Shown here: positions 1 to 13,152 of the stretch, piece after piece
How positions within the stretch are numbered: the stretch's first letter is position 1
How the letters are laid out: each line of letters starts with the position of its first letter
IMG/VR virus record: IMGVR_UViG_2698536428_000004
Coordinates: 1 to 13,152 of that record
Strand: one strand, 5' to 3'
Length of the DNA: 13,152 nt
Source: a virus
Taxonomy: Duplodnaviria > Heunggongvirae > Uroviricota > Caudoviricetes
Position numbers and translations under genes: made by a program
Notes under the pieces: model-generated
Told to the model about the DNA's origin: nothing
The model's database searches: none
Seen by the model: only the letters and a program-made list of their open reading frames with translations

Positions 1-166
1 ACGTCATCGCGGTGAACGTACCGTCCTGGTTGGGGAACACGCCACATACCAGAGATTCGTTGTTGCCAAGATCGATAGTATCCATGCTGACCTCATTTCC
101 CCTTAACGCCGGGGTAGCGGAACAAAAACCTGCTGCATAGTTATTAAAGTCGAACCCTGCCATCAT
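1..166 (-). CDS. Partial CDS, 5' portion only (continues past the window start); hypothetical protein
   Basis: Open minus-strand frame from ATG at 166 (alternative ATG at 85 with GAGGT 5 nt upstream) running off the window edge with no stop; translation begins MMAGFDFNNYAAGFCSATPALRGNEVSMDTIDLGNNESLVCGVFPNQDGTFTAMT. Not in the ORF track because it is truncated. No family recognised. Confidence 0.3.
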   Translation of the reverse strand, partial: MMAGFDFNNYAAGFCSATPALRGNEVSMDTIDLGNNESLVCGVFPNQDGTFTAMT

Positions 167-325
167 GTTCTTACGCCTCGGGCTGGCTACTTAACCCCTG
201 ACCACTGCCTGGTAACTCGAAGTATTGCCTGGCGTTCTGTGGGGCGGGGTGGGTTGATGAAATAATGATGCACTTTTAAAGTTATGATGTCAACACTTAT
301 AAAGTTAGCTTTTGATCAATAAAAA

Positions 326-350
326 CCGCCTCGTGTGAAGCGGTTCTGCG
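326..350 (-). terminator. Rho-independent terminator downstream of the toxin gene
   Basis: On the minus strand, AACCGC-TTCACACGAG-GCGGTT hairpin followed by TTTTTATTG, immediately 3' of the toxin stop at 362. Confidence 0.5.
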
Positions 351-361
351 AAAAAAGAAGA

Positions 362-643
362 TTATCCAGGAAATTGTCGTCTGGAGTGGGTGACACTTAC
401 TATTTCAACACTCGAAGCGGCTACACGGTACAGAATGATATAGTTAGGATGAGCTACAATCTCACGCAAGCCAAACGCTCTGTCGCTTGATGGGTATAAG
501 TACGGATGTTCAGATAAAGCTAAAACACATGTCTCAATGCGAATCTTTAGCCTGCGTGCGGCATGGAGATTTTCTTTTGCAATATAGGCTACGATCTGAC
601 GTAAATCATCACGTGCAGAAGGTAGCCATAAAATGGGCAGCAT
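362..643 (-). CDS. Type II toxin, ParE/RelE superfamily
   Basis: 93 aa ORF (MLPILWLPSARDDLRQIVAYIAKE...IVSVTHSRR) with the layout of ParE/RelE plasmid-stabilisation toxins; its start overlaps the upstream antitoxin stop by 1 nt (ATGA), the classic antitoxin-then-toxin arrangement. Confidence 0.75.
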   Translation of the reverse strand: MLPILWLPSARDDLRQIVAYIAKENLHAARRLKIRIETCVLALSEHPYLYPSSDRAFGLREIVAHPNYIILYRVAASSVEIVSVTHSRRQFPG

Positions 644-834
644 TACACACTCCCGCTAGTCGCAGCAATTTGGGCAATGAGATTTTCCATTTCTGCCATT
701 ACATCATCATGAGGAATTGCAGGGCGCGGATCTGCAAGATTTGCAGCTACTTTTGCACGTAGCCATTCGTTGTAATTATTTTCTTGCTCAACGGTTTCAA
801 ACTCAGAAACCATCGGCGAAAGGGCAGTGTTCAT
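643..834 (-). CDS. Type II antitoxin (ParD/RHH-like), partner of the ParE/RelE toxin
   Basis: 63 aa when started at MNTALSPMVSEF; AGGAGG lies 5 nt upstream of this ATG (plus-strand cctcct at 842-847). The longer track ORF (to 897) has no RBS. Acidic C-terminus typical of antitoxins; overlaps the toxin start. Confidence 0.65.
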   Translation of the reverse strand: MNTALSPMVSEFETVEQENNYNEWLRAKVAANLADPRPAIPHDDVMAEMENLIAQIAATSGSV

Positions 835-863
835 AACATACCTCCTTTGGCTTATGATGTAGA

Positions 864-1271
864 CTATGCTCGGTGCCCTTTCTGGGCAGCGAGCCATCTT
901 GCAACAGTGCGCTCCATTGATTCTTTTTTGTCTTTCATGTCTTTAAGCATTTTTTCTTGATCTTCCTCTGGAAATGCTCCGAATGTTTGAAGCAGTTCCA
1001 TTTGCCTGGGGCCTATTTTCATAGTATCTGGCACCACAACCTGCTCTTCTTCGTTTGGCGGTAACATAAACCAATATGGGGGATAACCCGTTACTTCAGA
1101 AAGTTTATCAAGATTAGCTGTTGATGGACTTGTGATTCCGTGAACCCACTTTTGTACCGATTGCTGGGCAACACCAATCCTGCGGGCTAGTTCTGCCTGC
1201 TTAAGTCCTGTTTTTTCCAGTACCAATTTTATTCGGTACGTGGTTATTTCAAGGGTGGTCATTCGCTTCAT
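864..1271 (-). CDS. Prophage repressor, XRE-family HTH (DicA/CI-like), no S24 peptidase domain
   Basis: 135 aa; N-terminal HTH (LKQAELARRIGVAQQSVQKWVHG) matches XRE/Cro-CI DNA-binding domains; transcribed divergently from a Cro-like gene. Size and organisation resemble DicA of Qin-type prophages. Start may be ATG 1271 or 1262. Confidence 0.75.
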   Translation of the reverse strand: MKRMTTLEITTYRIKLVLEKTGLKQAELARRIGVAQQSVQKWVHGITSPSTANLDKLSEVTGYPPYWFMLPPNEEEQVVVPDTMKIGPRQMELLQTFGAFPEEDQEKMLKDMKDKKESMERTVARWLAAQKGHRA

Positions 1272-1322
1272 GCATTCATTTTACATAAAAAAAGTGTAAC
1301 TAGCACAATTAGCTTAAAGGTG

Positions 1323-1351
1323 TTGATAAACTAACTTTAAAAGTGTATAAA
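1323..1351 (+). promoter_or_regulatory. Candidate sigma-70 early promoter for the Cro-like gene, inside the divergent operator region
   Basis: TTGATA (1323-1328), 17 nt spacer, TATAAA (1346-1351), about 28 nt upstream of the ATG at 1379. The surrounding intergenic region (1272-1378) contains an inverted repeat TTAAAG-N15-CTTTAA and repeated AAGTGTA motifs that may be operator sites. Confidence 0.4.
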
Positions 1352-1378
1352 TCATGGTGATTCACTGGAGATAACGAT

Positions 1379-1645
1379 ATGCATGAATGTTTAAAAAATA
1401 AAATTCACCAAAGAGGGTTATCCCAAGCAGGTATTGCTCGTTTGATTGGATTACCGCAACAGGTTGTGTCTCGATGGGCTAATGGTCAGCAGGTCCCTGC
1501 ATCAAGGGTTCTGCAACTTTGTGAGATTATGGCGTGGGAGGTTACCCCCCACGAACTCCGACCTGATATTTATCCTAACCCAACAGACGGCTTGCCTGCT
1601 GAGTTTCAGACTAGCACACAGCCAGCGACGGGAGTTGATTCATGA
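1379..1645 (+). CDS. Cro-like HTH regulator (YdaS/DicC-like)
   Basis: 88 aa; GGAGA RBS upstream; HTH segment (LSQAGIARLIGLPQQVVSRWANGQ) and an ELRPDI motif recalled from YdaS-type Cro-like proteins; divergent from the repressor; stop overlaps the next gene (ATGA). Confidence 0.7.
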   Translation: MHECLKNKIHQRGLSQAGIARLIGLPQQVVSRWANGQQVPASRVLQLCEIMAWEVTPHELRPDIYPNPTDGLPAEFQTSTQPATGVDS

Positions 1646-2067
1646 AAATCAAGCATGAGCACATCCGCATGGCGATGAATGCCTGGGCATATCCTGACGG
1701 TGAGAAGGTGCCAGCTGCTGCTATTGCCAGAGCGTATTTTGAACTGGGGATGACATATCCCGAGTTGCACAACGACGACAGGCACAACGCGCTCTATCTC
1801 AACACCCAAAAGATTTTCCGTTGGCTGGATAAAGACACTCCTGATGCTGTTGAGAAAATTCAGGCATTGTTACCGGCGATCGAAAGGGCAATGCCACCTC
1901 CGCTGGTAGCCCGAATGCGCAGCCACAGTTCCGCTTATTTTCGGGAGCTGGTGGAGACGCAGGAACGGCTAGTGAAAGATATCGATGATTTCGTTGCATC
2001 AGCGATCGTTCTGTTCGACCAGATGAATCGTGGTGGTCCGGCGGGTAATTCCGTGGCTGTGCATTGA
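1642..2067 (+). CDS. YdaT-like protein (CII-like regulator, formerly annotated as a toxin)
   Basis: 141 aa starting MKIKHEH, translationally coupled to the Cro-like gene; size and position match YdaT of Rac-type prophages (from memory, not verified by search). Confidence 0.55.
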   Translation: MKIKHEHIRMAMNAWAYPDGEKVPAAAIARAYFELGMTYPELHNDDRHNALYLNTQKIFRWLDKDTPDAVEKIQALLPAIERAMPPPLVARMRSHSSAYFRELVETQERLVKDIDDFVASAIVLFDQMNRGGPAGNSVAVH

Positions 2068-2138
2068 CTGAAAATATTTATACCGGATCGCTTCCGGCAA
2101 TTCGTGAGTAAAAAGATTCGGTCTCAGAAGAGGTGAGT

Positions 2139-3179
2139 ATGGCTAATGCCTGGCTCAGATTATGGCATGACATGCCAAATGACCCTAAGTGGCGAACAAT
2201 TTCCAGGGTGTCAGGACAGCCAATCGCAACAGTGATGGCTGTGTATATCCACCTTCTGGTGAGCGCGTCACGAAATGTCACGACATGTCACGGCGTGTCA
2301 CTACGTGGTCACATTGATGTCACAACGGAAGATTTAGCAAGTGCACTTGATGTGACGGAAGAAGTAATTGATTCAATTTTGCAGGCGATGCAGGGGCGGG
2401 TGCTTGATGGAGATTTAATCACTGGATGGGAAAAACGCCAGGTAGCGAAAGAGGATAACGGCAACGTTTCGCAAACCGCGAAATCCCCGGCAGAGCGTAA
2501 GAGAGCACAACGCGAGAGGGAAAAATTACGAAAACAGAATGAGGGGTGTCACGATGAGTCACGCATATGTCACGACATGTCACTACGAGTCACGACAGAT
2601 AAAGATACAGATAAAGAATTAAACCCCACACATAACGCGCGCGTGCGCGAGAGTGCTCCGACCAGTGAATCGAACGGTACGCCGTTGCAGGCAGCGGAAC
2701 CTGATTACCAGGAAAGCCTGAGCGAACCCATCGGGAAGTTTCCGATGGCCGGTGGCTGGCATCCGTCGCCGGATTTTCGACGGCGGGCTGCACTGTGGGG
2801 AGTGGCTCTGCCGGAGCCTGAATTTACACCTGCTGAACTTGCCGCCTTCAGGGACTACTGGGCAGCTGAGGGGAAAGTTTTTACGCAGGTTCAGTGGGAG
2901 CAGAAATTCGCCCGTCACGTAAATCACGTCAGGGCGCAGGTTAAACCAGTCAGCAAGGGGGTGCGTCATGCAGCAGCACCAGGTGGCACCGCATCACGGG
3001 CAGTTCGGGAAATTCGGGCAGCACGTGAGCAGTGGGAACGTGAAAACGGATTTGTCAGCGACGGAAACGGCGTGGAAGCTGTGGGAGCTCATGGGGGAGG
3101 TTTATTCAAACCGCTGGACTCAGAAGAACGGGGCCGCACCTTCGAAGCTCTGGATTGCCCAGATTGGCGCGATGACTGA
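2139..3179 (+). CDS. Replication initiation protein (lambda O analogue; possibly DUF1376/YdaU-like)
   Basis: ATG at 2139 preceded by GAGGTG; 346 aa. Occupies the O position ahead of a P-like gene and contains two intragenic GTCAC iteron arrays plus an AT-rich tract, as in the lambda ori inside O. The 3' end is uncertain because the P-like frame overlaps from 2968. Confidence 0.55.
   Translation: MANAWLRLWHDMPNDPKWRTISRVSGQPIATVMAVYIHLLVSASRNVTTCHGVSLRGHIDVTTEDLASALDVTEEVIDSILQAMQGRVLDGDLITGWEKRQVAKEDNGNVSQTAKSPAERKRAQREREKLRKQNEGCHDESRICHDMSLRVTTDKDTDKELNPTHNARVRESAPTSESNGTPLQAAEPDYQESLSEPIGKFPMAGGWHPSPDFRRRAALWGVALPEPEFTPAELAAFRDYWAAEGKVFTQVQWEQKFARHVNHVRAQVKPVSKGVRHAAAPGGTASRAVREIRAAREQWERENGFVSDGNGVEAVGAHGGGLFKPLDSEERGRTFEALDCPDWRDD
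2267..2323 (+). repeat. Iteron array 1: six GTCAC-containing direct repeats at 10-11 bp spacing (candidate ori)
   Basis: GTCAC at 2267, 2277, 2287, 2297, 2308, 2319 (units such as GTCACGAAAT, GTCACGACAT, GTCACGGCGT); an inverted copy (TGTGAC) near 2352. Confidence 0.6.
2548..2625 (+). repeat. Iteron array 2: five GTCAC repeats followed by an AT-rich tract (candidate ori unwinding element)
   Basis: GTCAC at 2548, 2558, 2569, 2579, 2589; the unit GTCACGACAT is shared with array 1; followed by AGATAAAGATACAGATAAAGAATTAAA (2597-2623). Confidence 0.6.
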
Positions 3180-3633
3180 ACAGCAAATCAGGCTGGTCTG
3201 CCGTCAGTGCATGGACCGCTGCCGGGCGGGTGAAACGTGGCCCCCGGACCTGGCTGAGTTTGTTGCGCTGATTTCGGAGAGTGGGGCAAATCCATTTGGT
3301 CTTACGGTGGATGCCGTGATGGAAGAGTACCGGCGCTGGCGCAATGAATCCTGGCGGTACGACGGGAGTGATAAATACCCGTGGCCACAGCCTGTGCTGT
3401 ACCACATTTGCCTCGAGATGCGCACCAGAGGGATTGAACGTCAGATGACTGAAAGTGAGCTGAAACGACTTGCAGAACGACTGTTGACCAAATGGGCAAA
3501 GAATGTTGGTAACGGCATGAGTGTTCCGCCAGTGCGACGACAACTGGAAGGGCCAAAACACCCGCCAGGGCCAACGCCAATTGAGTTACTGAAACAGGAA
3601 TATGAGCGCCGGAAAGCGGCTGGTTTTGTCTGA
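2968..3633 (+). CDS. Replication protein P-like helicase loader
   Basis: 221 aa; ATG 2968 preceded by AAGGGGGTG; the segment LWIAQIGAMTEQQIRL...WPPDLAEFVALI...YPWPQP...ELKRLAERL parallels recalled lambda P (WVLAFRENGITTMEQV...PSPGQFVAWC...YPWKSN...ELRRKAADEL). Alternative starts at 3091 or 3172. Confidence 0.65.
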   Translation: MQQHQVAPHHGQFGKFGQHVSSGNVKTDLSATETAWKLWELMGEVYSNRWTQKNGAAPSKLWIAQIGAMTEQQIRLVCRQCMDRCRAGETWPPDLAEFVALISESGANPFGLTVDAVMEEYRRWRNESWRYDGSDKYPWPQPVLYHICLEMRTRGIERQMTESELKRLAERLLTKWAKNVGNGMSVPPVRRQLEGPKHPPGPTPIELLKQEYERRKAAGFV

Positions 3634-3666
3634 ATTTGAGAAATGATTTTGTCGGAGGAAATTTTA

Positions 3667-4380
3667 ATGGAAACCGTTTTTGACGCACTGAAAGCACTGA
3701 AAAGAGCCTCTTCACAGGAGGTGTCGGCCCGCCTTGGAATCAGCCGCGAAGATGCTGTCAACGAGCTGTGGAAGCTGAAACGCCGTGGTGAAGCAGATAA
3801 CAAGGGGTCGATGTGGTGGCTGACGATTGAGGCAACTGAAATGGTCACAAAAACCACTGCGGAGATGCTGATTAACTCAATTGAACAGCATGGTCCTCAG
3901 TCGGCTGACGAACTGGCGTTAATGTTCGGGATTACCTCCCGCCGGGCGAATTCAACGCTGGCAATGGCAATAAGCAAAGGTCGTCTGATTCGAGTAAATC
4001 AGAACGGTAAATTTCGTTACTGCCTGTCGGGCGATAATTTACCAGCAGAGCCGAAAGCTGCATCGGTAACGGAAACTGCTGGTAAAGCCTTTCCTCAGAC
4101 AGCAGGTGTTGCGTTACCAGTCCGGGAAGCGGAAACACAGGAAGAAATTAAAACTGAAAGTGTGGCGGTCACAGTGCAGTCACAGCCGTCGTTCACCAGA
4201 AAGCATCCGGATAGTCTGATTTTACCATCGCTGCATGTGGCTAACCGCGAACTGCGCCGGGCAAAAGGTCAGGTTCAGAAGTGGGAGCGTGTCTGCGCCG
4301 CGCTGCGGGAGCTGAACAAGCACCGGGATATTGTCCGACAGATTGTCGATTCCTCCAGTCGTATTGTGTCGGAAAAGTGA
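3667..4380 (+). CDS. Hypothetical prophage protein with two winged-helix-like modules
   Basis: ATG 3667 with GGAGGA 8 nt upstream; 237 aa; two HTH-like segments ([23 protein letters not shown] and [24 protein letters not shown]) and a charged, coiled-coil-like C-terminus. Confidence 0.55.
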
Positions 4381-4395
4381 TTGCCGGGGGCGCTT

Positions 4396-4899
4396 ATGGC
4401 AAAAGTATTTACACAAGAAGAGCGAGAAAAAATTAAAGGGCAGGTTGTTGAACTGGTACGCCGGAGTGGGCGCGAGACGTTACGGCAACTGGAAGCTAAA
4501 ACAGGTGCAACAAGATATCTGGTGAGCGTTCTCGCCAGAGAGCTGGTTGCCAGTGGTGATGTATACAACTCTGTCTACGGGTTATTTCCGTCTGAACAGG
4601 CTCGTAAAGACTGGCAAAACGCCCGCAAAAAACTTTCAAGGGAAAAGGCGAAGAAACCGGCTGTGGTTGATCCGGACCTTATCTGGTCATTACCAGACGG
4701 AGAAATACGCCGCTACGACAGGCGCCTGAACATAATCTGTCGCGAGTGCCGGAATAGTGAAGTTATGCAGCGAGTGCTGGCGTTTTATCAGGGGGTGGGG
4801 TCAGGAGGTGGTGCTGTGAGTGAAATTAGCTATCAGGCTTCAATTTCCGCTGGCATTCGCATCAAAGGAGAGGAGCATGGAAATAAAACCAGAAGATGA
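4396..4899 (+). CDS. Hypothetical protein, N-terminal winged-helix-like domain (possible paralogue of the preceding gene)
   Basis: ATG 4396 (track ORF starts at TTG 4381); 167 aa; N-terminus (GQVVELVRRSGRETLRQLEAKTGATRYLVSVLARELV) resembles the wH modules of the upstream protein; the C-terminal about 25 aa overlap the next gene and may be read-through. Confidence 0.45.
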   Translation: MAKVFTQEEREKIKGQVVELVRRSGRETLRQLEAKTGATRYLVSVLARELVASGDVYNSVYGLFPSEQARKDWQNARKKLSREKAKKPAVVDPDLIWSLPDGEIRRYDRRLNIICRECRNSEVMQRVLAFYQGVGSGGGAVSEISYQASISAGIRIKGEEHGNKTRR

Positions 4900-5233
4900 G
4901 TTAAGTAATATTGTTTTATTTCCGGTAAAAGAGGATGACCCACGTAATCAGGTTAATTTTCTTTATGAGCCATCGGAAAGACCATATTGTCATCACGCCT
5001 CTGTCCGGGTTGACGAAAAAGAGCGTCAGGTCCGCTGTAAAATCTGCGGTGCAGTTGTGGAGCCATTTGACTGGATGCCCTCTGTGGCGAAAAGAGAAAC
5101 CAGACTGGCAGATGATGTAAGGCTCTTGCGCCAGGAGGAACGGGAAAGGCGGAGAAATGTAGAAAAGCTAATTCAGATTGAGCGTAACGCGAAAGCGCGG
5201 ATACGCAGGGCGGCAAAATCAAGAACTGAATAA
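4877..5233 (+). CDS. Hypothetical protein with Cys/His zinc-ribbon-like motif and basic coiled-coil tail
   Basis: ATG 4877 preceded by AGGAGAGGAG; 118 aa; CHH...CKIC cluster then an R/E-rich helix (RLLRQEERERRRNVEKLIQIERNAKARIRRAAK). Confidence 0.55.
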   Translation: MEIKPEDELSNIVLFPVKEDDPRNQVNFLYEPSERPYCHHASVRVDEKERQVRCKICGAVVEPFDWMPSVAKRETRLADDVRLLRQEERERRRNVEKLIQIERNAKARIRRAAKSRTE

Positions 5234-5326
5234 TTAAATTTAGCACTGTTAAAAATTTAATCCTTAACCGGAGGGATTTCTGCACCCTCAGAACATCAGG
5301 AGGCCGTTCGAAATGGCGGTAGTGAA

Positions 5327-5509
5327 ATGCGAAAATTCAAAATAATTATTGAAACGGGAATAGCTGGTGGAGATTTTGAGGATGTATTCGAAGTAGATGA
5401 TGACGCAACACCTGATGAAATTCATGACGAAGCAAAAGAAATTTTCTTTAACTACTGCAATTACTCATACCACGAAATAAAAGATGAAGAGGAAGGACAA
5501 AATGGCTGA
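5327..5509 (+). CDS. Small acidic hypothetical protein (60 aa)
   Basis: ORF MRKFKIIIETGIAGGDFEDVFEVDDDATPDEIHDEAKE..., strongly D/E-rich; overlaps the next gene by 8 nt; weak own RBS, but a strong SD serves a 10-codon upstream ORF at 5313. Confidence 0.45.
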   Translation: MRKFKIIIETGIAGGDFEDVFEVDDDATPDEIHDEAKEIFFNYCNYSYHEIKDEEEGQNG

Positions 5510-5678
5510 TTTTGGTTCAACTAAATATAACGCCAGTTTTGAAGAATGGCATGAACTGTTAATGGATTATGCAGAGTTACGCGGTGGAAGTGCCGCTGAT
5601 GCTGAAGCATGGCGTGATGATTATGAAGCAGGGAAAACTCCGGTCGAAGCATATTGTGATGAGTGGGGCGATGAATGA
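5502..5678 (+). CDS. Small acidic hypothetical protein (58 aa)
   Basis: ATG 5502 preceded by GAGGAAGGA; MADFGSTKYNASFEEWHELLMDYAELRGGSAADAEAWRDDYEAGKTPVEAYCDEWGDE; stop overlaps the next start (ATGA). Confidence 0.5.
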   Translation: MADFGSTKYNASFEEWHELLMDYAELRGGSAADAEAWRDDYEAGKTPVEAYCDEWGDE

Positions 5679-6034
5679 GCGAGATTAATTATCAGGAAGG
5701 GCATGAAAAGGCAGGGCAGGCAAAACCAGTGGCATGGCGATATCGCTACGTGAAAAAAGGCGTTACAGACTTTCAGGGGAAGCAGTGGGCTGGTGACTGG
5801 AAATATGTCCAGACAAAAGAAGATTGTAACGACAGACCGAACTATGAAATTCAGGCGTTATTCACGGCCCCGCCAGCCCCGGTGACATCAGAAGGACTAG
5901 TTAAAGCCGTGTGCTTTTATGAACAGGTAAAGCGTGAGAATCCACCAGTCGAAACAGGTGCATGGAAAGATGCTGTTGACTGGGTACTCAAAGAGGCTTG
6001 CCAGGCTGTAAGCATTAGCAACAAAGGGGGGTGA
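5675..6034 (+). CDS. Hypothetical protein (119 aa)
   Basis: Translationally coupled ORF (ATGA overlap with the upstream gene); no recognisable motif. Confidence 0.5.
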   Translation: MSEINYQEGHEKAGQAKPVAWRYRYVKKGVTDFQGKQWAGDWKYVQTKEDCNDRPNYEIQALFTAPPAPVTSEGLVKAVCFYEQVKRENPPVETGAWKDAVDWVLKEACQAVSISNKGG

Positions 6035-6037
6035 GTA

Positions 6038-6214
6038 ATGCGTGTGGCATGTATCAGTTTGTTACCGTACCCGACTCGTTTTTTGGCTTCTGCGCTAATT
6101 GCAAAGCCGCGTGTCCTGATGGATGACAGCATCATCCCGACACCAAAGCGCCGCCATACCGGTATTGCAGCGGCACGACGAGCAGCAAAGAAACGCAGGA
6201 GAGCAAAACGATGA
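6038..6214 (+). CDS. Small hypothetical protein (58 aa): hydrophobic N-terminus, very basic C-terminus
   Basis: Not in the ORF track (<60 aa). ATG 6038 preceded by AAGGGGGGTGA; hand-translated as MRVACISLLPYPTRFLASALIAKPRVLMDDSIIPTPKRRHTGIAAARRAAKKRRRAKR; stop overlaps the next ATG (ATGA). Confidence 0.35.
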   Translation: MRVACISLLPYPTRFLASALIAKPRVLMDDSIIPTPKRRHTGIAAARRAAKKRRRAKR

Positions 6215-6405
6215 AAAACCGTAAAGCAAAAATTCTGTTAGCTCGCAGAAACGGTGTTGGTGTCTGGCGGTGGGTGAGGATTAGTAACAGACGGGTGAGG
6301 TTGACGGGGTGTTGCGGTGTTATGGGGCACAGTTGTTGCAAAAAGCCCAGCGCGGCGCAAAACCGCTGGAAAAACCACTGTTATCTGCGCACTAAAGGAG
6401 AGTGA
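6211..6405 (+). CDS. Small basic Cys-rich hypothetical ORF (64 aa); coding status uncertain
   Basis: ATG 6211 preceded by AGGAGA and coupled to neighbours, but the DNA is G/T-rich with GGGTGAGG repeats, so it may be regulatory DNA rather than coding. Confidence 0.3.
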   Translation: MKNRKAKILLARRNGVGVWRWVRISNRRVRLTGCCGVMGHSCCKKPSAAQNRWKNHCYLRTKGE

Positions 6406-6406
6406 G

Positions 6407-6922
6407 ATGGCGTTAACACACCGCGAACTCTGTCAGATTGCGTACAAGTTCCTTAAGCGCAACGGGTTCAAGGTTTGCTTTCATGACCGCTTTATAGCTG
6501 TAACCAGTACCGGAGAACAGCCAGATGCTATGGGATTCAGAAATTCAGCATCATGCCTGATAGAGGCGAAGTGTTCTCGTGCTGACTTGTTGGCAGATAG
6601 AAAAAAGCGTTTCCGTAAAAATCCCTCTCTTGGCATGGGCGACTGGAGATTCTTTATTAGTGAGCCGGGAATTATTTCAATTGAGGATTTACCACCTGGC
6701 TGGGGATTACTTCACGTTGTTAACGGAAGAGTACGGAAAGTACATGGGTGGCCCAAGGGTAATTGCTGTTGGGGTGATCCTGACGATAAGCCATTTACTG
6801 GAAATAAGCAGGTTGAATGCGATTACATGTTGTCTGCATTAAGGCGCATGGAGTTGAGGGGACACCTTAATGAAATATATGACGGTGTAATCGTTAATAA
6901 GCAAGAAGGAAGCGCGGCATGA
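6407..6922 (+). CDS. Putative PD-(D/E)xK-type nuclease (VRR-NUC/MmcB-like), hypothetical
   Basis: ATG 6407 preceded by AAGGAGA; 171 aa; motif GEQPDAMGF...[11 protein letters not shown] matches the D...(D/E)xK core of restriction-endonuclease-fold nucleases. Assignment is by motif only. Confidence 0.5.
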
Positions 6923-7263
6923 CCACTTTTACCAGAGAGCAGTTAATAGCTCACGCAGAGGAGACTATTGAAGCACAGAGACTGTGCATACCGGGCACAA
7001 TCGACCATGACATCATCCGCACATATAAGATGGATATTGCTGTTCTGGAAATCGCACTGGCATCGCTGGCAGCAGAGCCAGCCGGTAAATTGCATGAATA
7101 CAAACCAGTGGGACATCAGCGTCTGGTCGACGAGTTAACCATGCTGGTAAAGCAGTTAACCTGGCAACTGAGGAAAACGAAGCCGGACTGTAAATTGCCG
7201 GGTAAGGCGATGGACTACCTGAAGCGAAACGGACTGATAAGCGCAGAGGATGTTTTACGATGA
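6919..7263 (+). CDS. Hypothetical protein (114 aa)
   Basis: ORF with ATGA overlap to the upstream gene; no motif recognised. Confidence 0.5.
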
Positions 7264-7343
7264 CCTGGCCTGAGGCATTCACAACGGTAGGGATCGCAAT
7301 GGCGGTGGCGCTGGTGGTGTATTCGATTTGTCGCTGGGGATAA
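7260..7343 (+). CDS. Candidate 27-aa single-pass membrane peptide
   Basis: Not in the ORF track. ATG 7260 overlaps the upstream stop (ATGA); AGAGGA 8 nt upstream; hand-translated as [27 protein letters not shown] with a hydrophobic core. Confidence 0.3.
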
Positions 7344-7350
7344 AAACGAT

Positions 7351-7378
7351 TTGCGGGGAAAGGATAGTTAAGTAGAAT
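7351..7378 (+). promoter_or_regulatory. Candidate hok mRNA promoter
   Basis: TTGCGG (7351-7356), 16 nt spacer, TAGAAT (7373-7378); the predicted 5' end near 7381-7385 coincides with the upstream complementary box of the hok mRNA. Confidence 0.35.
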
Positions 7379-7435
7379 TGCTGCGGGTGCTTGAGGCTAT
7401 CTGTCTCAGGCATGAATACCAAAAGGCAGATAGAG

Positions 7436-7515
7436 AAAAGCCCCAGTTAACATTGCGCGTCCGGCAAGACGCTTAACATTAATCTGAGGCCATATCTATG
7501 CTCTACACACGTAGG
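7436..7515 (-). ncRNA. sok: Candidate Sok-like antisense RNA (approximate boundaries)
   Basis: By analogy with hok/sok loci the antisense RNA lies opposite the hok leader. The minus strand shows a possible -35/-10 (TTGCCT, 17 nt, TAACCT; plus coordinates about 7551-7523) and a hairpin GCGTC-TTGCCG-GACGC (plus coordinates about 7459-7474). Ends are not defined by sequence alone. Confidence 0.3.
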
Positions 7516-7554
7516 TTAGCCTCTTACGTGCCGAAAGGCAAGGAGAAGCAGGCT

Positions 7555-7710
7555 ATGAAGCAGCAAAAGGCGATGCTAATCGCCCTTATCGTCATCTGTT
7601 TAACCGTCATAGTGACGGCACTGGTAACGAGGAAAGACCTCTGCGAGGTACGAATCCGAACCGGCCAGACGGAGGTCGCTGTCTTCACAGTCTACGAACC
7701 TGAGGAGTAA
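7555..7710 (+). CDS. hok: Hok/Gef-family type I toxin (51 aa membrane peptide)
   Basis: MKQQKAMLIALIVICLTVIVTALVTRKDLCEVRIRTGQTEVAVFTVYEPEE closely parallels recalled Hok ([52 protein letters not shown]); AAGGAGA RBS; the track ORF 7498-7710 is an in-frame 5' extension. Confidence 0.85.
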   Translation: MKQQKAMLIALIVICLTVIVTALVTRKDLCEVRIRTGQTEVAVFTVYEPEE

Positions 7711-7778
7711 GAGACCAGGCGGGGGAGAAATCTCCCGCCACCTCTGATGTGTCAGGCATCCTCAACGCACCCGCGCTT

Positions 7779-7806
7779 AACCCGCTTCGTCGGGTTTTGT
7801 TTTTTC
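7779..7806 (+). terminator. Rho-independent terminator of the hok transcript
   Basis: AACCCG-CTTCGT-CGGGTT hairpin followed by TTGTTTTTT. Confidence 0.6.
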
Positions 7807-7877
7807 CTGGCATTCTGGTTTACAATTCGCATGCCAGCCTGAACAACTGGCACCTGCTGCGCCAGCAGAGACAACCG

Positions 7878-8156
7878 ATGGCGCACGATACCAAATTATA
7901 CAATTCTGATAATTCAGCCGTCTTTGCCAGCAGGCACGGGCGGCGTTCTCATGCATTCAAATCTGACTGGTTCCAGCACGCCCCATGCACTGAAGAACAG
8001 GCCGAATGGCTGATTCAGAACTACCGCAGACGTGGGTATGAGTTTAGGAAAACCCTCAGCCTCGATTATCGTCACTGGATAATCTCCGTCAGGCTTCCTT
8101 ACTCTGAACGCCCACCGCGTCCGTCCCGCACATTCCAGCAACGCATCTGGAGGTAA
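7878..8156 (+). CDS. Hypothetical protein (92 aa); position corresponds to rem of Qin-type prophages
   Basis: Internal ATG at 7878 chosen because the upstream part of the track ORF (from 7749) overlaps the hok terminator; weak RBS; family not recognised from sequence. Confidence 0.4.
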   Translation: MAHDTKLYNSDNSAVFASRHGRRSHAFKSDWFQHAPCTEEQAEWLIQNYRRRGYEFRKTLSLDYRHWIISVRLPYSERPPRPSRTFQQRIWR

Positions 8157-8157
8157 C

Positions 8158-9207
8158 GTGCGGGTATTACTTCGACCTGTTCTGGTTCCGGAACTCGGGC
8201 TGGTGGTCCTTAAGCCAGGCCGTGAATCCATGCCTATATTCCACAATACCCGGGTACTGGTGGAGCCGGAACCGAAAAGCATGCGTAATCTGCCGTCCGG
8301 GGTCGTTCCTGCCGTTCGCCAGCCGCTGGTGGAAGACAAAACATTGCTGCCGTTTTTCAGTAACGCACGGGTAATTCGTGCTGCTGGTGGTGCTGGTGCA
8401 TTGTCTGACTGGCTGTTGCGCCATATTAAATCCTGCCAGTGGCCACACGGCGATTATCATCACAGCGAAACCGTTATTCACCGTTATGGTACCGGCGCAA
8501 TGGTGTTGTGCTGGCACTGCGACAACCAGCTGCGTGACCAGACATCCGAATCACTCGAGCAACTTGCTCATCAAAACTTGTCAGCATGGATGATTGACGT
8601 CATACGCCATGCAATGAATGGCACGCAGGAGCGGGAATTATCGCTGGCTGAATTATCCTGGTGGGCGGTCTGCAATCAGGTGGCGGACGCGCTACCAGAG
8701 GCAGCATTACGTCGTTCTCTGGGGTTACGTGCGGAAAAAATTCGCTCAGTATACCGCGAGAGCGACATCGTGCCGGGAGAGCAGACCGCCACCAGCATCC
8801 TGAAACAGCGCACAAAAAATCTTGCGCCGCTGCCTCACGCCCACCAGCAACAGAACTCACCACAGGAAAAGACGGTGGTCAGCATTGCCGTTGATCCTGA
8901 GTCTCCGGAATCTTTCATGAAACGACCTAAACGTCGCCGCTGGGTTAACGAGAAATACAAACGCTGGGTGAAGACACAGCCGTGTGCGTGTTGTGGTAAG
9001 CCAGCCGACGATCCCCATCACCTGATTGGTCATGGTCAGGGCGGAATGGGGACAAAATCTCACGATATTTTCACGCTACCGCTGTGTCGGGAGCATCACA
9101 ACGAGCTTCATGCGGATCCGCTGGCGTTCGAAGAAAAGCATGGTTCTCAGGTTGATTTAATTTTTCGTTTTCTTGATCACGCCTTTGCAACTGGCGTGCT
9201 TGGGTAA
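8158..9207 (+). CDS. DUF968-family protein with C-terminal HNH-like Cys/His motif (YdfU/Ref-like)
   Basis: 349 aa from GTG 8158 (GGAGG upstream); C-terminal CACCGKPADDPHHLIGHGQGG...LCREHHNELH is an HNH/zinc-binding signature; length and position (hok, small ORF, this gene, then antiterminator) mirror ydfU of Qin. Confidence 0.65.
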   Translation: MRVLLRPVLVPELGLVVLKPGRESMPIFHNTRVLVEPEPKSMRNLPSGVVPAVRQPLVEDKTLLPFFSNARVIRAAGGAGALSDWLLRHIKSCQWPHGDYHHSETVIHRYGTGAMVLCWHCDNQLRDQTSESLEQLAHQNLSAWMIDVIRHAMNGTQERELSLAELSWWAVCNQVADALPEAALRRSLGLRAEKIRSVYRESDIVPGEQTATSILKQRTKNLAPLPHAHQQQNSPQEKTVVSIAVDPESPESFMKRPKRRRWVNEKYKRWVKTQPCACCGKPADDPHHLIGHGQGGMGTKSHDIFTLPLCREHHNELHADPLAFEEKHGSQVDLIFRFLDHAFATGVLG

Positions 9208-9219
9208 AAGAGGTGACTG

Positions 9220-9579
9220 ATGCTCATAGATTTGGTTTTACCTTACCCGCCGACGGTGAACACTTACTGGCGACGCCGTGGCAGCACATATTTTGTATCA
9301 AAAGCCGGGGAGCGTTATCGCCGGGCAGTGGCGCTTATTGTTCGCCAGCAGCGCTTGAAATTAAGCCTGTCCGGACGGTTGGCAATAAAAATTATTGCAG
9401 AACCACCGGATAAGCGCCGCCGTGACCTGGACAATATTCTGAAAGCACCGCTGGATGCGCTTACGCATGCGGGGTTGTTAATGGACGATGAGCAGTTTGA
9501 TGAAATCAATATTGTACGTGGTCAGCTTGTTCTTGGTGGTCGGCTGGGTGTGAAGATTTACAAAATTGAGAGTGAGTGA
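9220..9579 (+). CDS. rusA: Crossover junction endodeoxyribonuclease RusA (Holliday junction resolvase)
   Basis: 119 aa; AAGAGGTGA RBS; LPYPPTVNTYWRR...PDKRRRDLDNILKAPLDALTHAGLLMDDEQ parallels E. coli RusA (LPWPPSNNRYYRH...[30 protein letters not shown]). Confidence 0.85.
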   Translation: MLIDLVLPYPPTVNTYWRRRGSTYFVSKAGERYRRAVALIVRQQRLKLSLSGRLAIKIIAEPPDKRRRDLDNILKAPLDALTHAGLLMDDEQFDEINIVRGQLVLGGRLGVKIYKIESE

Positions 9580-10148
9580 GCGTAAATATGATATATCCGG
9601 AAATTACAGGCAAAAGCGGCGAACATTTACGCCTGAACACGCTGGAAGCAGTCTGGATCCAGGGGAAATTACGGATGTGGGGGCGGTGGTCGTATATCGG
9701 TGGGGGTAAATCCGGAAATATGTTTAACCGGTTACTGGTTTCGAAAAAGCTGACGAAAACAGCAGTTAATGAGGTTTTACGCAGAATGAAGAAATCCGGG
9801 CTGGAAAAACCGGAACTTGAGGCATTTTTTCGGGATATGACCAGAGGGAAGCAGAAGAGCTGGTTGTCACATTGTACAGACACAGAGGCGTTGATTATTG
9901 ATCGCGTTATCAGTGAGGTGCTTGGGGAATATCCCGGACTAATCAATATTCTCCGGCAAAGGTACGAAGGACGGGGAATGAGCAAACTGAAAATGGCCGA
10001 AAGGTTAAATGCAGATCATCCTGAGTGGACGTTGGTTACGTGCAGACGCCGAATTGATCAGTGGTTGGGGATATCTGAATTTATGTTACATGCCCCCATG
10101 CGTATGGCTTTTGTTACAGAGAAAAAAATGTTGCAAACTGATCAATAA
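9576..10148 (+). CDS. Probable late-gene antiterminator (Q-like), assigned mainly by position
   Basis: 190 aa ORF immediately after rusA (start GTG 9576 or ATG 9588) and immediately before a short region with a strong intrinsic terminator, the position lambdoid phages give to Q; the family was not confirmed by a motif I can name. Confidence 0.4.
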   Translation: MSVNMIYPEITGKSGEHLRLNTLEAVWIQGKLRMWGRWSYIGGGKSGNMFNRLLVSKKLTKTAVNEVLRRMKKSGLEKPELEAFFRDMTRGKQKSWLSHCTDTEALIIDRVISEVLGEYPGLINILRQRYEGRGMSKLKMAERLNADHPEWTLVTCRRRIDQWLGISEFMLHAPMRMAFVTEKKMLQTDQ

Positions 10149-10220
10149 ACTGCTTCAATCCGTATAAGCTTCGCAAGGCTGTATCGCGAGGCGAAATGCA
10201 AGTTTTTTTCGCACAAGGAA

Positions 10221-10243
10221 GCCACCGGAAGGTGGTTTTTTTG
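10221..10243 (+). terminator. Rho-independent terminator (candidate tR-prime-like, Q-antiterminated)
   Basis: GCCACC-GGAA-GGTGG hairpin followed by TTTTTTT, about 75 nt after the Q-like stop; a second T7 run at 10203-10209 lies just upstream. Confidence 0.55.
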
Positions 10244-10365
10244 TGTCCGTAATATACAGCAGCGCAATAAATTCGCTGGTGGTTATTAATACCGTTCTTT
10301 CAGCTTGCTGGCTTTTTCGACAAGAGTTATTGGTGTGTCACGTTAACCGGAAAAGGGAAAAAGAC

Positions 10366-10563
10366 ATGCTGAAACAGCAGGATATGACCGAAACCGCCAG
10401 AGTGGTGTTTAATGAATTAAGCGTCACCGAACCGGCGACAGTCGGGGAGATTGCACAGAATACGTACCTTTCACGCGAACGCTGTCAGTTAATACTGACC
10501 CAGCTTGTTATGGCTGGGCTGGCAGACTATCAGTTCGGTTGTTACAGACGCCTTCAGTCCTGA
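10366..10563 (+). CDS. Small hypothetical protein (65 aa), winged-helix-like
   Basis: ATG 10366 preceded by a purine-rich tract (AAAGGGAAAAAGA); MLKQQDMTETARVVFNELSVTEPATVGEIAQNTYLSRERCQLILTQLVMAGLADY...; a strong terminator overlaps its stop. Confidence 0.4.
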   Translation: MLKQQDMTETARVVFNELSVTEPATVGEIAQNTYLSRERCQLILTQLVMAGLADYQFGCYRRLQS

Positions 10564-10576
10564 AGGCTTTTTTATT
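10550..10576 (+). terminator. Rho-independent terminator
   Basis: GCCTTCAG-TC-CTGAAGGC perfect inverted repeat followed by TTTTTTATTT; the stop codon of the upstream small ORF lies inside the stem. Confidence 0.55.
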
Positions 10577-11131
10577 TGTGGTAAATGGGCGGCTGATGGG
10601 TGTGGTGGTTGTTGCTTTCCCGTTGCTGAAAAAGAAAGCATCAGGCGATTAGCAGGGTATCAGTTACCCGTTGAAATTTTTAAATACCTCACAATTCAGG
10701 CGGTTGACTGTTGTCTGGTTTGCGGGGAGTTTGTTAAAAGAAACTGGCATGGTGAATCCCCCTGTGCGGAGGGGCAATCAGCAACTGGTGTTTTGTCACC
10801 GACCCTTATCCTTTCTGTGCGGGTTCAGGTGCTGATACTGAACTCACCGGGAGGCAACCGGCACCATGCAATGGCACATAGCGCCACTCTCCAGCCCCTC
10901 TCCGGAGGGGCTTTCTTGTGGGCAAAAAAAAGCCTGAGTGGGTTCGGGCAACAGCATGAGATATACATTTTTATAATCGAATGGATTTTAACCAGAATTC
11001 ATAAGGCTGCGCAACTGCGCGGTCTTTTTCGAATTGCGGGCTGTCGTCTCCCTTCTGCCATTGTCCTGTAACTTCCGGACTTCAGCCCGCTCCTTATTTT
11101 ACTCACAATATTATCCCGGCCGGGAGGATTC

Positions 11132-13120
11132 ATGGCATTTAAACACTATGATGTGGTCAGGGCGGCATCGCCGTCAGACCTTGCGGATGCGCTTGCTCAA
11201 AAAATTCGTGAAGGATGGCAACCATACGGCGGGCCGTTTTCTTCGTATACGGATGATGGCGCAGCACTTATTCAGGCGATTGTCGCAGAAGGTGATGTCA
11301 CCACACCTGTGGTGGTGAAGCCGTCGGATGGAGAAGGCACAGTTATCAGCACCACCAGCGAACCGGAGTATTACTTTGTTGTTGTTCTGGCGGGGCAGTC
11401 AAACTCAATGTCTTTTGGTGAAGGGCTGCCGCTGCCGGAGACATATGACCGTCCGGACCCGCGTATTAAACAGCTGGCGCGTCGCAGTACGGTGACGCCG
11501 GGTGGTGCCGCCTGTAAATATAACGACATCATTCCGGCAGACCACTGTCTGCATGATGTGCAGGATATGAGTAACCTGAATCATCCTCATGCAGACCTGA
11601 GTAAGGGACAGTACGGTTGTGTGGGGCATGCTCTGCATGTTGCCAAAAAGCTGCTGCCGTTTATGCCTGCGAATGCGGGTATCCTTCTTGTTCCATGTGG
11701 CCGTGGCGATTCGGGATTTACTGCGGGGGCCGAGGGGGCGTTTAACGAAGCGTCGGGAGCGACCGCAGGCTCGTCCCTGTGGGGGGCGGATAAACCGCTG
11801 TATCATGACCTGGTCAGCAGAACCCGTGCGGCCCTGAAGAAAAATCCGAAGAACGTGCTGTTATCAGTGATCTGGATGCAGGGAGAAAAAGATGTCAGTT
11901 CGGGGAGACATGCAGAACACAATGCGCTTTTCCTTGCCATGGTAAATCAGTTCCGTACGGAACTGGCAGATGTGGCAGAGCAGTGTACTGGCGGGACAAC
12001 GGCCAGCGTCCCGTGGATTTGCGGTGATACCACGTACTACTGGAAGGAAAGGTATGCAGTGCCGTATGAGGCGGTTTACGGTGGGTATAAAGGAAAAGCT
12101 GCGCAGAATATTCACTTTGTGCCGTTGATGACGGATGAGCATGGTGTGAATGTGCCGACAAACGAGCCGTCAGAAGATCCGGACATTATCCCGGCGGGAT
12201 ACTATGGCGCTGCGTCACGCACTGCCAGTAACTGGACGGCAGCCGATCGTAAAACGCACTTCAGTTCATGGGCGCGAAGAGGCCTTGTTTCAGACCGCCT
12301 GGCAGGTGCCATTTTGCAGTACGCCGGGCGGACATTATCGTTCCTTACCGGGCAGAGCGCACCGCAGTCGGGTGGTACAACGCCTGTCAGTCCGGGGACA
12401 CCGGATGTTGAGAAACCGCAGGATGGCGGTGTTGCTGGTACTGGTCATGATGAGGCCGTGAGCAGTACCAGGACGGTGGCTGAATATGATGCGAACAGTG
12501 GAAATGGTGCATTGACAGAGCAGCAGTGGGGCGCTTCCGGCGGCAAAGGCACTGTGACTGATGACGGTGGACGGAAAGCGCTGCGACTGGAAAAACAGCC
12601 CGGTAAACTGACGTCCTGGAAAATGTTCCGTACTATTGCAGTGGAGGAGGCAAAAAATCTTCTCAGCAAGGGGGGGGAAATTGCCGTACGGTTCAAAATT
12701 CCGGATGGAAGCGAGCTGGTGAACGGACAGTTTGTCTTTGGTATCTACTGGCCGGTGTCGCAGTGGGCGTCAGGCGCGACAGCAAACAGTATGCTGGCAT
12801 CATTCTTCCTTCAGACGGATACATCAAATCTTAATCTGATGCACCAGAAGGGCTCCTCGAATGCACAACTGGGTACATTTGGTACGTTTGACCATAACTG
12901 GCATACGGTTGTTTTCCGCTTTGCGGGAAATAACAGCGAAAGAGTTGTTCCGGTGATTGATGGTGCAGAGCAGACGGCATTTGACCTTGTGATGTGGACA
13001 AATGATGGCTTTACAGCAGATACGCTGACGCTGACAGATATCACGGGGGCAAAAGCGACGTATCCGGTACTGCTTGATACGGTCACAGTCAAAGTTAACG
13101 AAAACCGGGAATCAGCATAA
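11132..13120 (+). CDS. nanS: Prophage sialate O-acetylesterase (NanS-p type; DUF1737 N-terminus plus SASA/SGNH esterase domain)
   Basis: 662 aa; GGGAGGA RBS; N-terminus MAFKHYDVVRAASPSDLADAL...; esterase signature VVLAGQSNSM (GQSN catalytic-serine motif); location downstream of the Q/terminator region matches the nanS-p genes of EHEC lambdoid prophages. Confidence 0.75.
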   Translation: MAFKHYDVVRAASPSDLADALAQKIREGWQPYGGPFSSYTDDGAALIQAIVAEGDVTTPVVVKPSDGEGTVISTTSEPEYYFVVVLAGQSNSMSFGEGLPLPETYDRPDPRIKQLARRSTVTPGGAACKYNDIIPADHCLHDVQDMSNLNHPHADLSKGQYGCVGHALHVAKKLLPFMPANAGILLVPCGRGDSGFTAGAEGAFNEASGATAGSSLWGADKPLYHDLVSRTRAALKKNPKNVLLSVIWMQGEKDVSSGRHAEHNALFLAMVNQFRTELADVAEQCTGGTTASVPWICGDTTYYWKERYAVPYEAVYGGYKGKAAQNIHFVPLMTDEHGVNVPTNEPSEDPDIIPAGYYGAASRTASNWTAADRKTHFSSWARRGLVSDRLAGAILQYAGRTLSFLTGQSAPQSGGTTPVSPGTPDVEKPQDGGVAGTGHDEAVSSTRTVAEYDANSGNGALTEQQWGASGGKGTVTDDGGRKALRLEKQPGKLTSWKMFRTIAVEEAKNLLSKGGEIAVRFKIPDGSELVNGQFVFGIYWPVSQWASGATANSMLASFFLQTDTSNLNLMHQKGSSNAQLGTFGTFDHNWHTVVFRFAGNNSERVVPVIDGAEQTAFDLVMWTNDGFTADTLTLTDITGAKATYPVLLDTVTVKVNENRESA

Positions 13121-13152
13121 CCGGCAAAAAAAACCGCCAGCTGGCCTGAAAC

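Follow-up and report, generated by a model that had tools for sequence, protein, structure and literature searches.

The closest characterised relative of the protein described here is MmcB of Caulobacter crescentus, an SOS-regulated PD-(D/E)xK endonuclease that protects the cell against mitomycin C and cisplatin (PMC9578287). Its substrate is only hypothesised and the role proposed for it is crosslink repair (PMC9578287). MmcB-like proteins (PF06319, formerly DUF1052), which include the structure 3DNX (SPO1766 of Silicibacter (Ruegeria) pomeroyi), are single-domain PD-(D/E)xK proteins of about 150–175 residues, a build shared by the phage family treated below. A literature search found annotation mentions of phage MmcB-like proteins and no functional study of them. 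A second point of comparison is the nin region of phage lambda. Its genes (Rap/NinG, Orf/NinB, RusA) are non-essential, lie early-right between the replication genes and Q, and their products process recombination and replication intermediates. The third is the protein itself under other names: phage P7 Upf89.0, recorded as “unknown protein function” and 98.2% identical to the protein studied here, and the PHROG families 9263 and 631 are the same protein, entries that come without an assigned function or mechanism.

The window, meaning the whole stretch of 13,152 nucleotides that was analysed (positions 1 to 13,152 of IMG/VR record IMGVR_UViG_2698536428_000004), belongs to a lambdoid (Qin/Rac-like) prophage of E. 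coli. Its plus strand carries, in this order, a cI/cro-like switch, YdaT, the replication genes and a set of small accessory genes, followed by hok/sok, a DUF968/HNH protein, RusA, Q and a SASA esterase, while relBE is found on the minus strand. The gene under study is one of the accessory genes. It and its immediate surroundings are organized as follows:

6407–6922, plus strand: gene of a putative MmcB-like PD-(D/E)xK nuclease, 171 codons and stop, identified as an ORF and by its matches to PHROG 9263 and 631
6395–6400, plus strand: Shine-Dalgarno sequence AAGGAG, 6 nt 5' of the start codon at 6407, as seen in the sequence itself
6211–6405, plus strand: upstream ORF for a putative basic protein of 64 aa (PHROG 1380), whose stop codon TGA (6403–6405) lies 1 nt before the ATG of the putative nuclease gene
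6919–7263, plus strand: downstream ORF of 114 aa, whose ATG at 6919 overlaps the TGA of the putative nuclease gene at 6920–6922 (ATGA)

The ORF listing also offers a version of 201 aa that starts from a GTG at 6317. The ATG at 6407 is preferred because the homologues begin there. A scan for promoters and terminators around the gene gave nothing above the shuffled background.

Several other elements of the window were recognised. A RelE/ParE-family toxin (93 aa) and a RelB-family antitoxin (84 aa) are coded at 362–897 on the minus strand beside the prophage immunity region, an arrangement also known from the Qin prophage. A hok/sok type I toxin-antitoxin system spans 7385–7710 on the plus strand (Rfam sok, 116 bits over 7385–7560); its Hok-like ORF of 70 aa (7498–7710, plus strand) is named HokD in a related E. 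coli prophage. The DUF968 protein (YdfU-like, 349 aa; 8158–9207, plus strand) has a C-terminal HNH-type motif and matches Pfam DUF968 (E 3e-76), HNHc_6 (E 1e-4) and PHROG 96 “HNH endonuclease”. It is coded directly before RusA (9220–9579) and Q (9576–10148) and is a second, unrelated putative nuclease of the same operon. 3' of the gene for antiterminator Q comes a full-length match to the Rfam sRNA STnc100 (140.6 bits; 10718–10923, plus strand), placed where a leader transcript of the late promoter would lie. No tRNA genes were found here, although L001, a related prophage, codes for three tRNAs between Q and the esterase. The SASA-family carbohydrate esterase (662 aa; 11132–13120, plus strand), downstream of Q, is of the NanS-p-like sialate O-acetylesterase type that is common in Stx and lambdoid prophages.

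The ORF at 6407–6922, whose ribosome-binding site is a good one, is a real gene under strong purifying selection. Comparison with the Enterobacter and Citrobacter copies gave pS 0.77–0.81 against pN 0.07, and comparison with the phage P7 copy gave pS 0.093 against pN 0.007. Note that raw pN and pS are reported instead of omega because the Nei-Gojobori dS was saturated. Near-identical copies are present in 931 of 5,426 complete E. coli genomes (about one in six), at 1,050 chromosomal places and at 250 on plasmids (250/1,300, about a fifth), and are always annotated “hypothetical protein”. At least some of the plasmid-borne copies are on P1/P7-type phage-plasmids. Relatives are carried by 643 of 50,697 phage records. 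The gene is unannotated in one P1 record, and in another the match falls under a feature labelled “EaA protein”. The 99%-identical copy of prophage L001 (7001–7179; NZ_CP042892.1) is flagged in RefSeq as a “frameshifted” pseudogene; its 171-codon ORF is intact and the flag probably arose because the database proteins it was compared with are longer, fused or mis-started.

A first-pass annotation, made from the sequence alone, had pointed to a PD...E-x-K arrangement in this protein and to the restriction-endonuclease fold that it typifies. The segments concerned are:

6515–6571, plus strand: catalytic motif region with E37 (6515–6517), D40 (6524–6526), E53 (6563–6565) and K55 (6569–6571), supported by the sequence, the model and conservation
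6575–6616, plus strand: helix 2 signature S57-R58-x-D60-(F/L)-x-x-D64-x-x-K67-x-x-R70, defined from the alignments

The motif is present as described, with E37 and D40 in the string GEQPD and E53 and K55 in the string IEAKCS. Its conservation was assessed in the 147 best family representatives, whose pairwise identity does not exceed 50%. E37 and D40 are each found in 143 of 144 aligned representatives and E53 and K55 each in 145 of 146. Eight further residues (D60, D64, K67, R70, G78, R81, W99 and E137) are near-invariant, being kept in at least 98% of the aligned representatives, and R146 (115/127) and R147 (117/125) are well conserved. A string of the PD...ExK kind may in principle occur by chance; here it sits in strands 2–3 of the predicted core and is near-invariant, and the motif is real. 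The Cys/Trp-rich carboxyl half reported in the same annotation was borne out in part. W99 is the sole invariant tryptophan, with W80 swapped for other aromatic residues across the family, but C119, C120 and C138 vary among the representatives and are not a family feature. The “Cys-rich” character is thus local to the E. coli branch. A metal-binding Cys cluster or zinc site was considered and rejected for the same lack of conservation.

The AlphaFold2 model of the 171-residue protein, built with an alignment of 34 sequences, has a mean pLDDT of 82.7 and a pTM of 0.77. The order of its elements is helix 5–18, strands 22–25, 41–45 and 48–54, helix 58–65 and strand 80–85, a confidently predicted alpha-beta-beta-beta-alpha-beta arrangement which is the classical restriction-endonuclease core. 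D40 is placed just before or at the start of strand 2 and E53-x-K55 at the end of strand 3. Structural similarity to 3DNX runs over the whole domain. A Foldseek search of viral models returned the family members first, followed by several phage proteins whose annotation reads “MmcB family DNA repair protein”. Against the PDB the same program gave nothing at an E value of 1e-3 or better; 3dnx was absent from the list, and the weak matches there are again PD-(D/E)xK nucleases. The predicted core, together with the conserved catalytic D and (D/E)xK, supports assignment of the protein to the PD-(D/E)xK superfamily. The fold proposed in the first-pass annotation is in agreement with this model and also with the profile comparisons to 3DNX and MmcB described below.

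Standard domain libraries are silent on this protein: scans with Pfam and NCBIfam gave no match even at E values up to 1, so that the gathering threshold of PF06319 is not reached. The PHROG families 9263 and 631 are matched with E values of 3e-121 and 1e-93, both with function “unknown”. The family phrog_5429, “DNA repair protein”, is matched weakly by the protein itself; it is also hit by 42 of 45 diverse relatives. PF06319 was matched below threshold by 11 of these 45 relatives and Hjc, also below threshold, by 18, and one relative (P0257) scores above the PF06319 gathering cut-off (23.1 bits against 22). A word-indexed protein search retrieved 324 relatives, the best 120 of which are all at least 59% identical and, where a source is named, all from Enterobacterales. 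By exhaustive profile search the family comprises at least 3,319 clusters at 50% identity that have E values of 1e-3 or lower, 2,438 of them at 1e-10 or lower. All database names of its members are “hypothetical” or “Upf”. Occasional fusions to Ea22-like, DUF551, TniB-like ATPase or dATP/dGTP pyrophosphohydrolase sequences were set aside as functional clues because they are sporadic and the partners are typical neighbouring phage genes.

The link to MmcB was established by profiles. A phmmer search of the PDB sequences with the single protein gave chance-level matches only, for which reason a profile of the 45 diverse family members was used; its sole match among all PDB sequences is 3dnx (E 6.2e-5), with an alignment that runs over ...D-x-x-G...IE-x-K-x-SR-x-DF-x-x-D-x-K. 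The 51-residue 3DNX fragment retrieved only short PF06319 fragments. Full-length genes of true MmcB proteins were therefore taken from replicons of Sinorhizobium, Sphingomonas and Bacillus, relatives were collected, and an MmcB alignment was built. Comparison of the 45-member phage-family alignment with it by hhalign gave a probability of 97.7% (E 1.6e-12, 106 columns), and comparison with two single MmcB sequences gave 92% and 89%. The MmcB profile was among those that the first-pass annotation had suggested consulting, and the match obtained is to true MmcB proteins. VRR-NUC (PF08774), suggested with it, gave neither a Pfam match nor close structural similarity.

The two families have in common the signature D...ExKxSxxDxxxDxK...R...P..GL, whose S-x-x-D-x-x-x-D-x-K stretch belongs to the helix 2 signature. 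D40, E53 and K55 occupy the same alignment columns as D52, E66 and K68 in S. meliloti MmcB. The invariant set of the latter is E42, G48, R50, D52, E66, K68, S70, D73, D77 and K79, and seven of these (D52, E66, K68, S70, D73, D77 and K79) are matched, in that order, by D40, E53, K55, S57, D60, D64 and K67. MmcB E42 aligns to D27, a position which is E in most relatives, and MmcB W80/Y83 fall within the insert region of the alignment. There are also consistent differences. The phage family has GEQPD with the invariant E37 where MmcB has GRRAD with an invariant Arg (R50), and it carries a five-residue insert (FRxxP) after K67 that MmcB lacks. W99-G-L-L, E137 and R146/R147 are carboxyl-terminal elements of its own. 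The replacement of the MmcB Arg by E37 and the insert suggest that substrate or mechanism may differ from those of MmcB. The carriers differ as well: phages, prophages and phage-plasmids of Gammaproteobacteria and beyond for this family, Alphaproteobacteria and Bacillus replicons with housekeeping-type neighbours for the MmcB proteins sampled. The phage gene belongs to a lytic operon, whereas MmcB is SOS-regulated. As judged from these sequence comparisons, the phage family is a divergent sister or a sub-branch of the MmcB-like (DUF1052, PF06319) nucleases that lies beyond the current Pfam and NCBIfam models.

The genomic surroundings of the family were compared in 33 loci, found with a closer family alignment and their flanking ORFs clustered, from Enterobacterales, Vibrionales-like and other Gammaproteobacteria, an Alphaproteobacterium and a Flavobacterium. 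In the lambdoid prophages among them the gene lies between O/P-, DnaB- or DnaC-like replication genes and NinG/RusA/Q. In Stx phage TL-2011c the relative is found in the early-left accessory region, the operon that contains the gene in P7 has a predicted C1 operator, the DNA primase gene adjoins the relative in a virulent Ackermannviridae phage, and in Vibrio phage SSP002 it directly follows the genes for DNA polymerase I and two helicases. Early or DNA-metabolism regions are always the wider setting of the family, in temperate and virulent phages alike. Note that genomic context, used as a functional argument, is guilt by association. In the loci L026 (6480–9086, Pantoea) and L032 (Alteromonas) the homologue adjoins a protein of about 850–870 aa that was judged by eye to be a TraC/VirB4-like conjugation ATPase, which suggests that the family also rides on conjugative elements.

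From the homology, the catalytic set and this context we infer the nuclease activity, the substrate and the biological role of the protein. It is probably a small single-domain metal-dependent PD-(D/E)xK DNA endonuclease that serves phage DNA replication, repair or recombination. D40 and E53 would hold Mg2+, probably helped by E37 and by the acidic residue of strand 1 (D27, E in most relatives), and K55 would position the attacking water. Helix 2 (R58, D60, D64, K67, R70) together with R81, W99, E137 and R146/R147 may form the surface for DNA binding and substrate recognition. The gene would be expressed as part of the early-right operon of the phage, where the replication genes precede it and the DUF968/RusA/Q genes follow, and its product would act alone, without partner genes, cutting damaged, stalled or branched DNA intermediates and thereby helping phage replication, repair or recombination. 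Such a role would be analogous to the crosslink repair proposed for MmcB and to that of the accessory nucleases coded in the nin region of lambda. The nin enzymes occupy the same genomic niche, and NinG-, NinB- and RusA-like genes neighbour the related loci, but they have no sequence or fold relationship to this protein and the likeness is one of position and presumed role only. The first-pass annotation had offered a recombination or resolution nuclease as one option, and a recombination or repair nuclease fits both the MmcB homology and the replication-module context. A recombination role would be partly redundant, since the prophage already codes for RusA and the DUF968/HNH protein.

Branched DNA as one possible substrate leads to the first alternative, an Hjc-type resolvase of Holliday junctions or branched DNA that would serve the phage in recombination. 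The similarity of the family to Hjc (PF01870) is much weaker than that to MmcB, as it is for UPF0102/YraN, AHJR-like and VRR-NUC proteins; Hjc gave neither a Pfam model match nor close structural similarity, and the phage family has an additional conserved carboxyl-terminal hairpin and helix compared with Hjc and the minimal PD-(D/E)xK nucleases. With RusA already coded in the same operon, a resolvase of this type is unlikely.

A different reading takes the whole family as a widespread and hitherto unrecognised class of early phage nucleases made for conflict (anti-defence, or directed against host or competitor DNA) instead of repair. Specificity would then come from E37, the FRxxP insert and the WGLL/E137/RR carboxyl-terminal elements, and the spread over lambdoid prophages, P1/P7 phage-plasmids, Ackermannviridae, Vibrio phages and loci resembling conjugative elements would reflect selection for conflict. 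This reading is likewise improbable. Its narrower form is a nuclease for anti-defence or host takeover, which early in infection would break down the DNA of the host or else a signal or component of its defences. Early expression, accessory regions that are rich in counter-defence genes, the presence of the family in both virulent and temperate phages and the TraC-like conjugation ATPase adjoining the gene in two loci are in line with it. No similarity to described anti-defence proteins was found, however, nothing speaks for this function specifically and the nearest relatives are chromosomal repair genes; this function is unlikely too. An enzyme of phage replication, repair or recombination is the preferred reading.

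The autonomy proposed for this enzyme is reflected in the behaviour of its gene. The first-pass annotation had described the gene as coupled to the basic mini-ORF upstream and to the 114-aa gene downstream. The physical coupling is there, with a gap of 1 nt on one side and an ATGA overlap on the other, but the neighbours do not travel with the gene. Clustering of the flanking ORFs in the 33 loci revealed no conserved partner gene; the 114-aa gene adjoins the putative nuclease gene in just two of these loci, and the commonest neighbours, mosaic genes of the Ea22/DUF551 type, reach at most nine. In the E. coli genomes the matches broke at about 6388–6406 and 6933–6940, which are both borders of the gene, and each flank was also found separately elsewhere. 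These breaks and the separate occurrence of the flanks identify the gene as an independent mosaic cassette. The downstream 114-aa ORF is likewise a mosaic cassette of its own. The block of four genes at 6038–7263 is intact in one of 5,426 E. coli genomes. A module of three or four genes was rejected on the strength of these counts, and the overlaps with the neighbours reflect the tight packing of phage genes. The basic mini-ORFs of 58 aa (6038–6214, plus strand) and 64 aa (6211–6405, plus strand) have strong matches to PHROG 13831 and 1380, respectively, and the second of them is Cys-rich. They make up a cassette of their own that is joined to the putative nuclease gene in some Stx phages and P1-like plasmids; only the 58-aa ORF is annotated in the RefSeq record of TL-2011c.

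The same data weigh on the other option of the first-pass annotation, a compact module for defence or exclusion. In this proposal the protein, alone or with the flanking ORFs, would be the effector of prophage defence or superinfection exclusion, and would degrade the DNA of an incoming phage or kill the infected cell. Neither the protein nor its five neighbours matched PADLOC-DB v2 at E values up to 1, no sensor or partner gene is conserved in the 33 loci, the neighbours recombine independently of the gene (a single genome has the full block) and the family occurs in strictly virulent phages, within replication modules. Expression also argues against it, as the gene belongs to the early-right operon of the lytic programme, where no promoter signal rises above background, and the predicted C1 repressor operator in P7 indicates that the gene should be silent in the lysogen. 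A defence effector is accordingly considered very unlikely. Least credible of all is a restriction endonuclease paired with a nearby phage DNA methyltransferase: small type II enzymes do have the same fold and a C5 or N6/N4 methyltransferase gene lies within 4.5 kb in eight of the 33 loci (adjacent in L010, L012 and L029), but most of the loci have none, none was recognised among the ORFs of the 13-kb window (the seven near the gene were scanned with Pfam), orphan methyltransferases are common in such phage regions anyway, and conservation of the family across genera goes far beyond what is usual for restriction enzymes.

The assignment to phage replication, repair or recombination gives a “hypothetical protein” a fold, a probable catalytic center and MmcB as its nearest characterised relative. 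The carriers include Stx-converting phages and P1/P7 phage-plasmids, and the family of at least 3,319 clusters at 50% identity was previously devoid of a Pfam, NCBIfam or PHROG function. A false lead was removed as well, namely that the tight overlaps with the small neighbouring ORFs mark a functional module. The gain is better annotation and not a new kind of system: the gene is a common, stand-alone phage accessory gene, ordinary in nature and hitherto unannotated.
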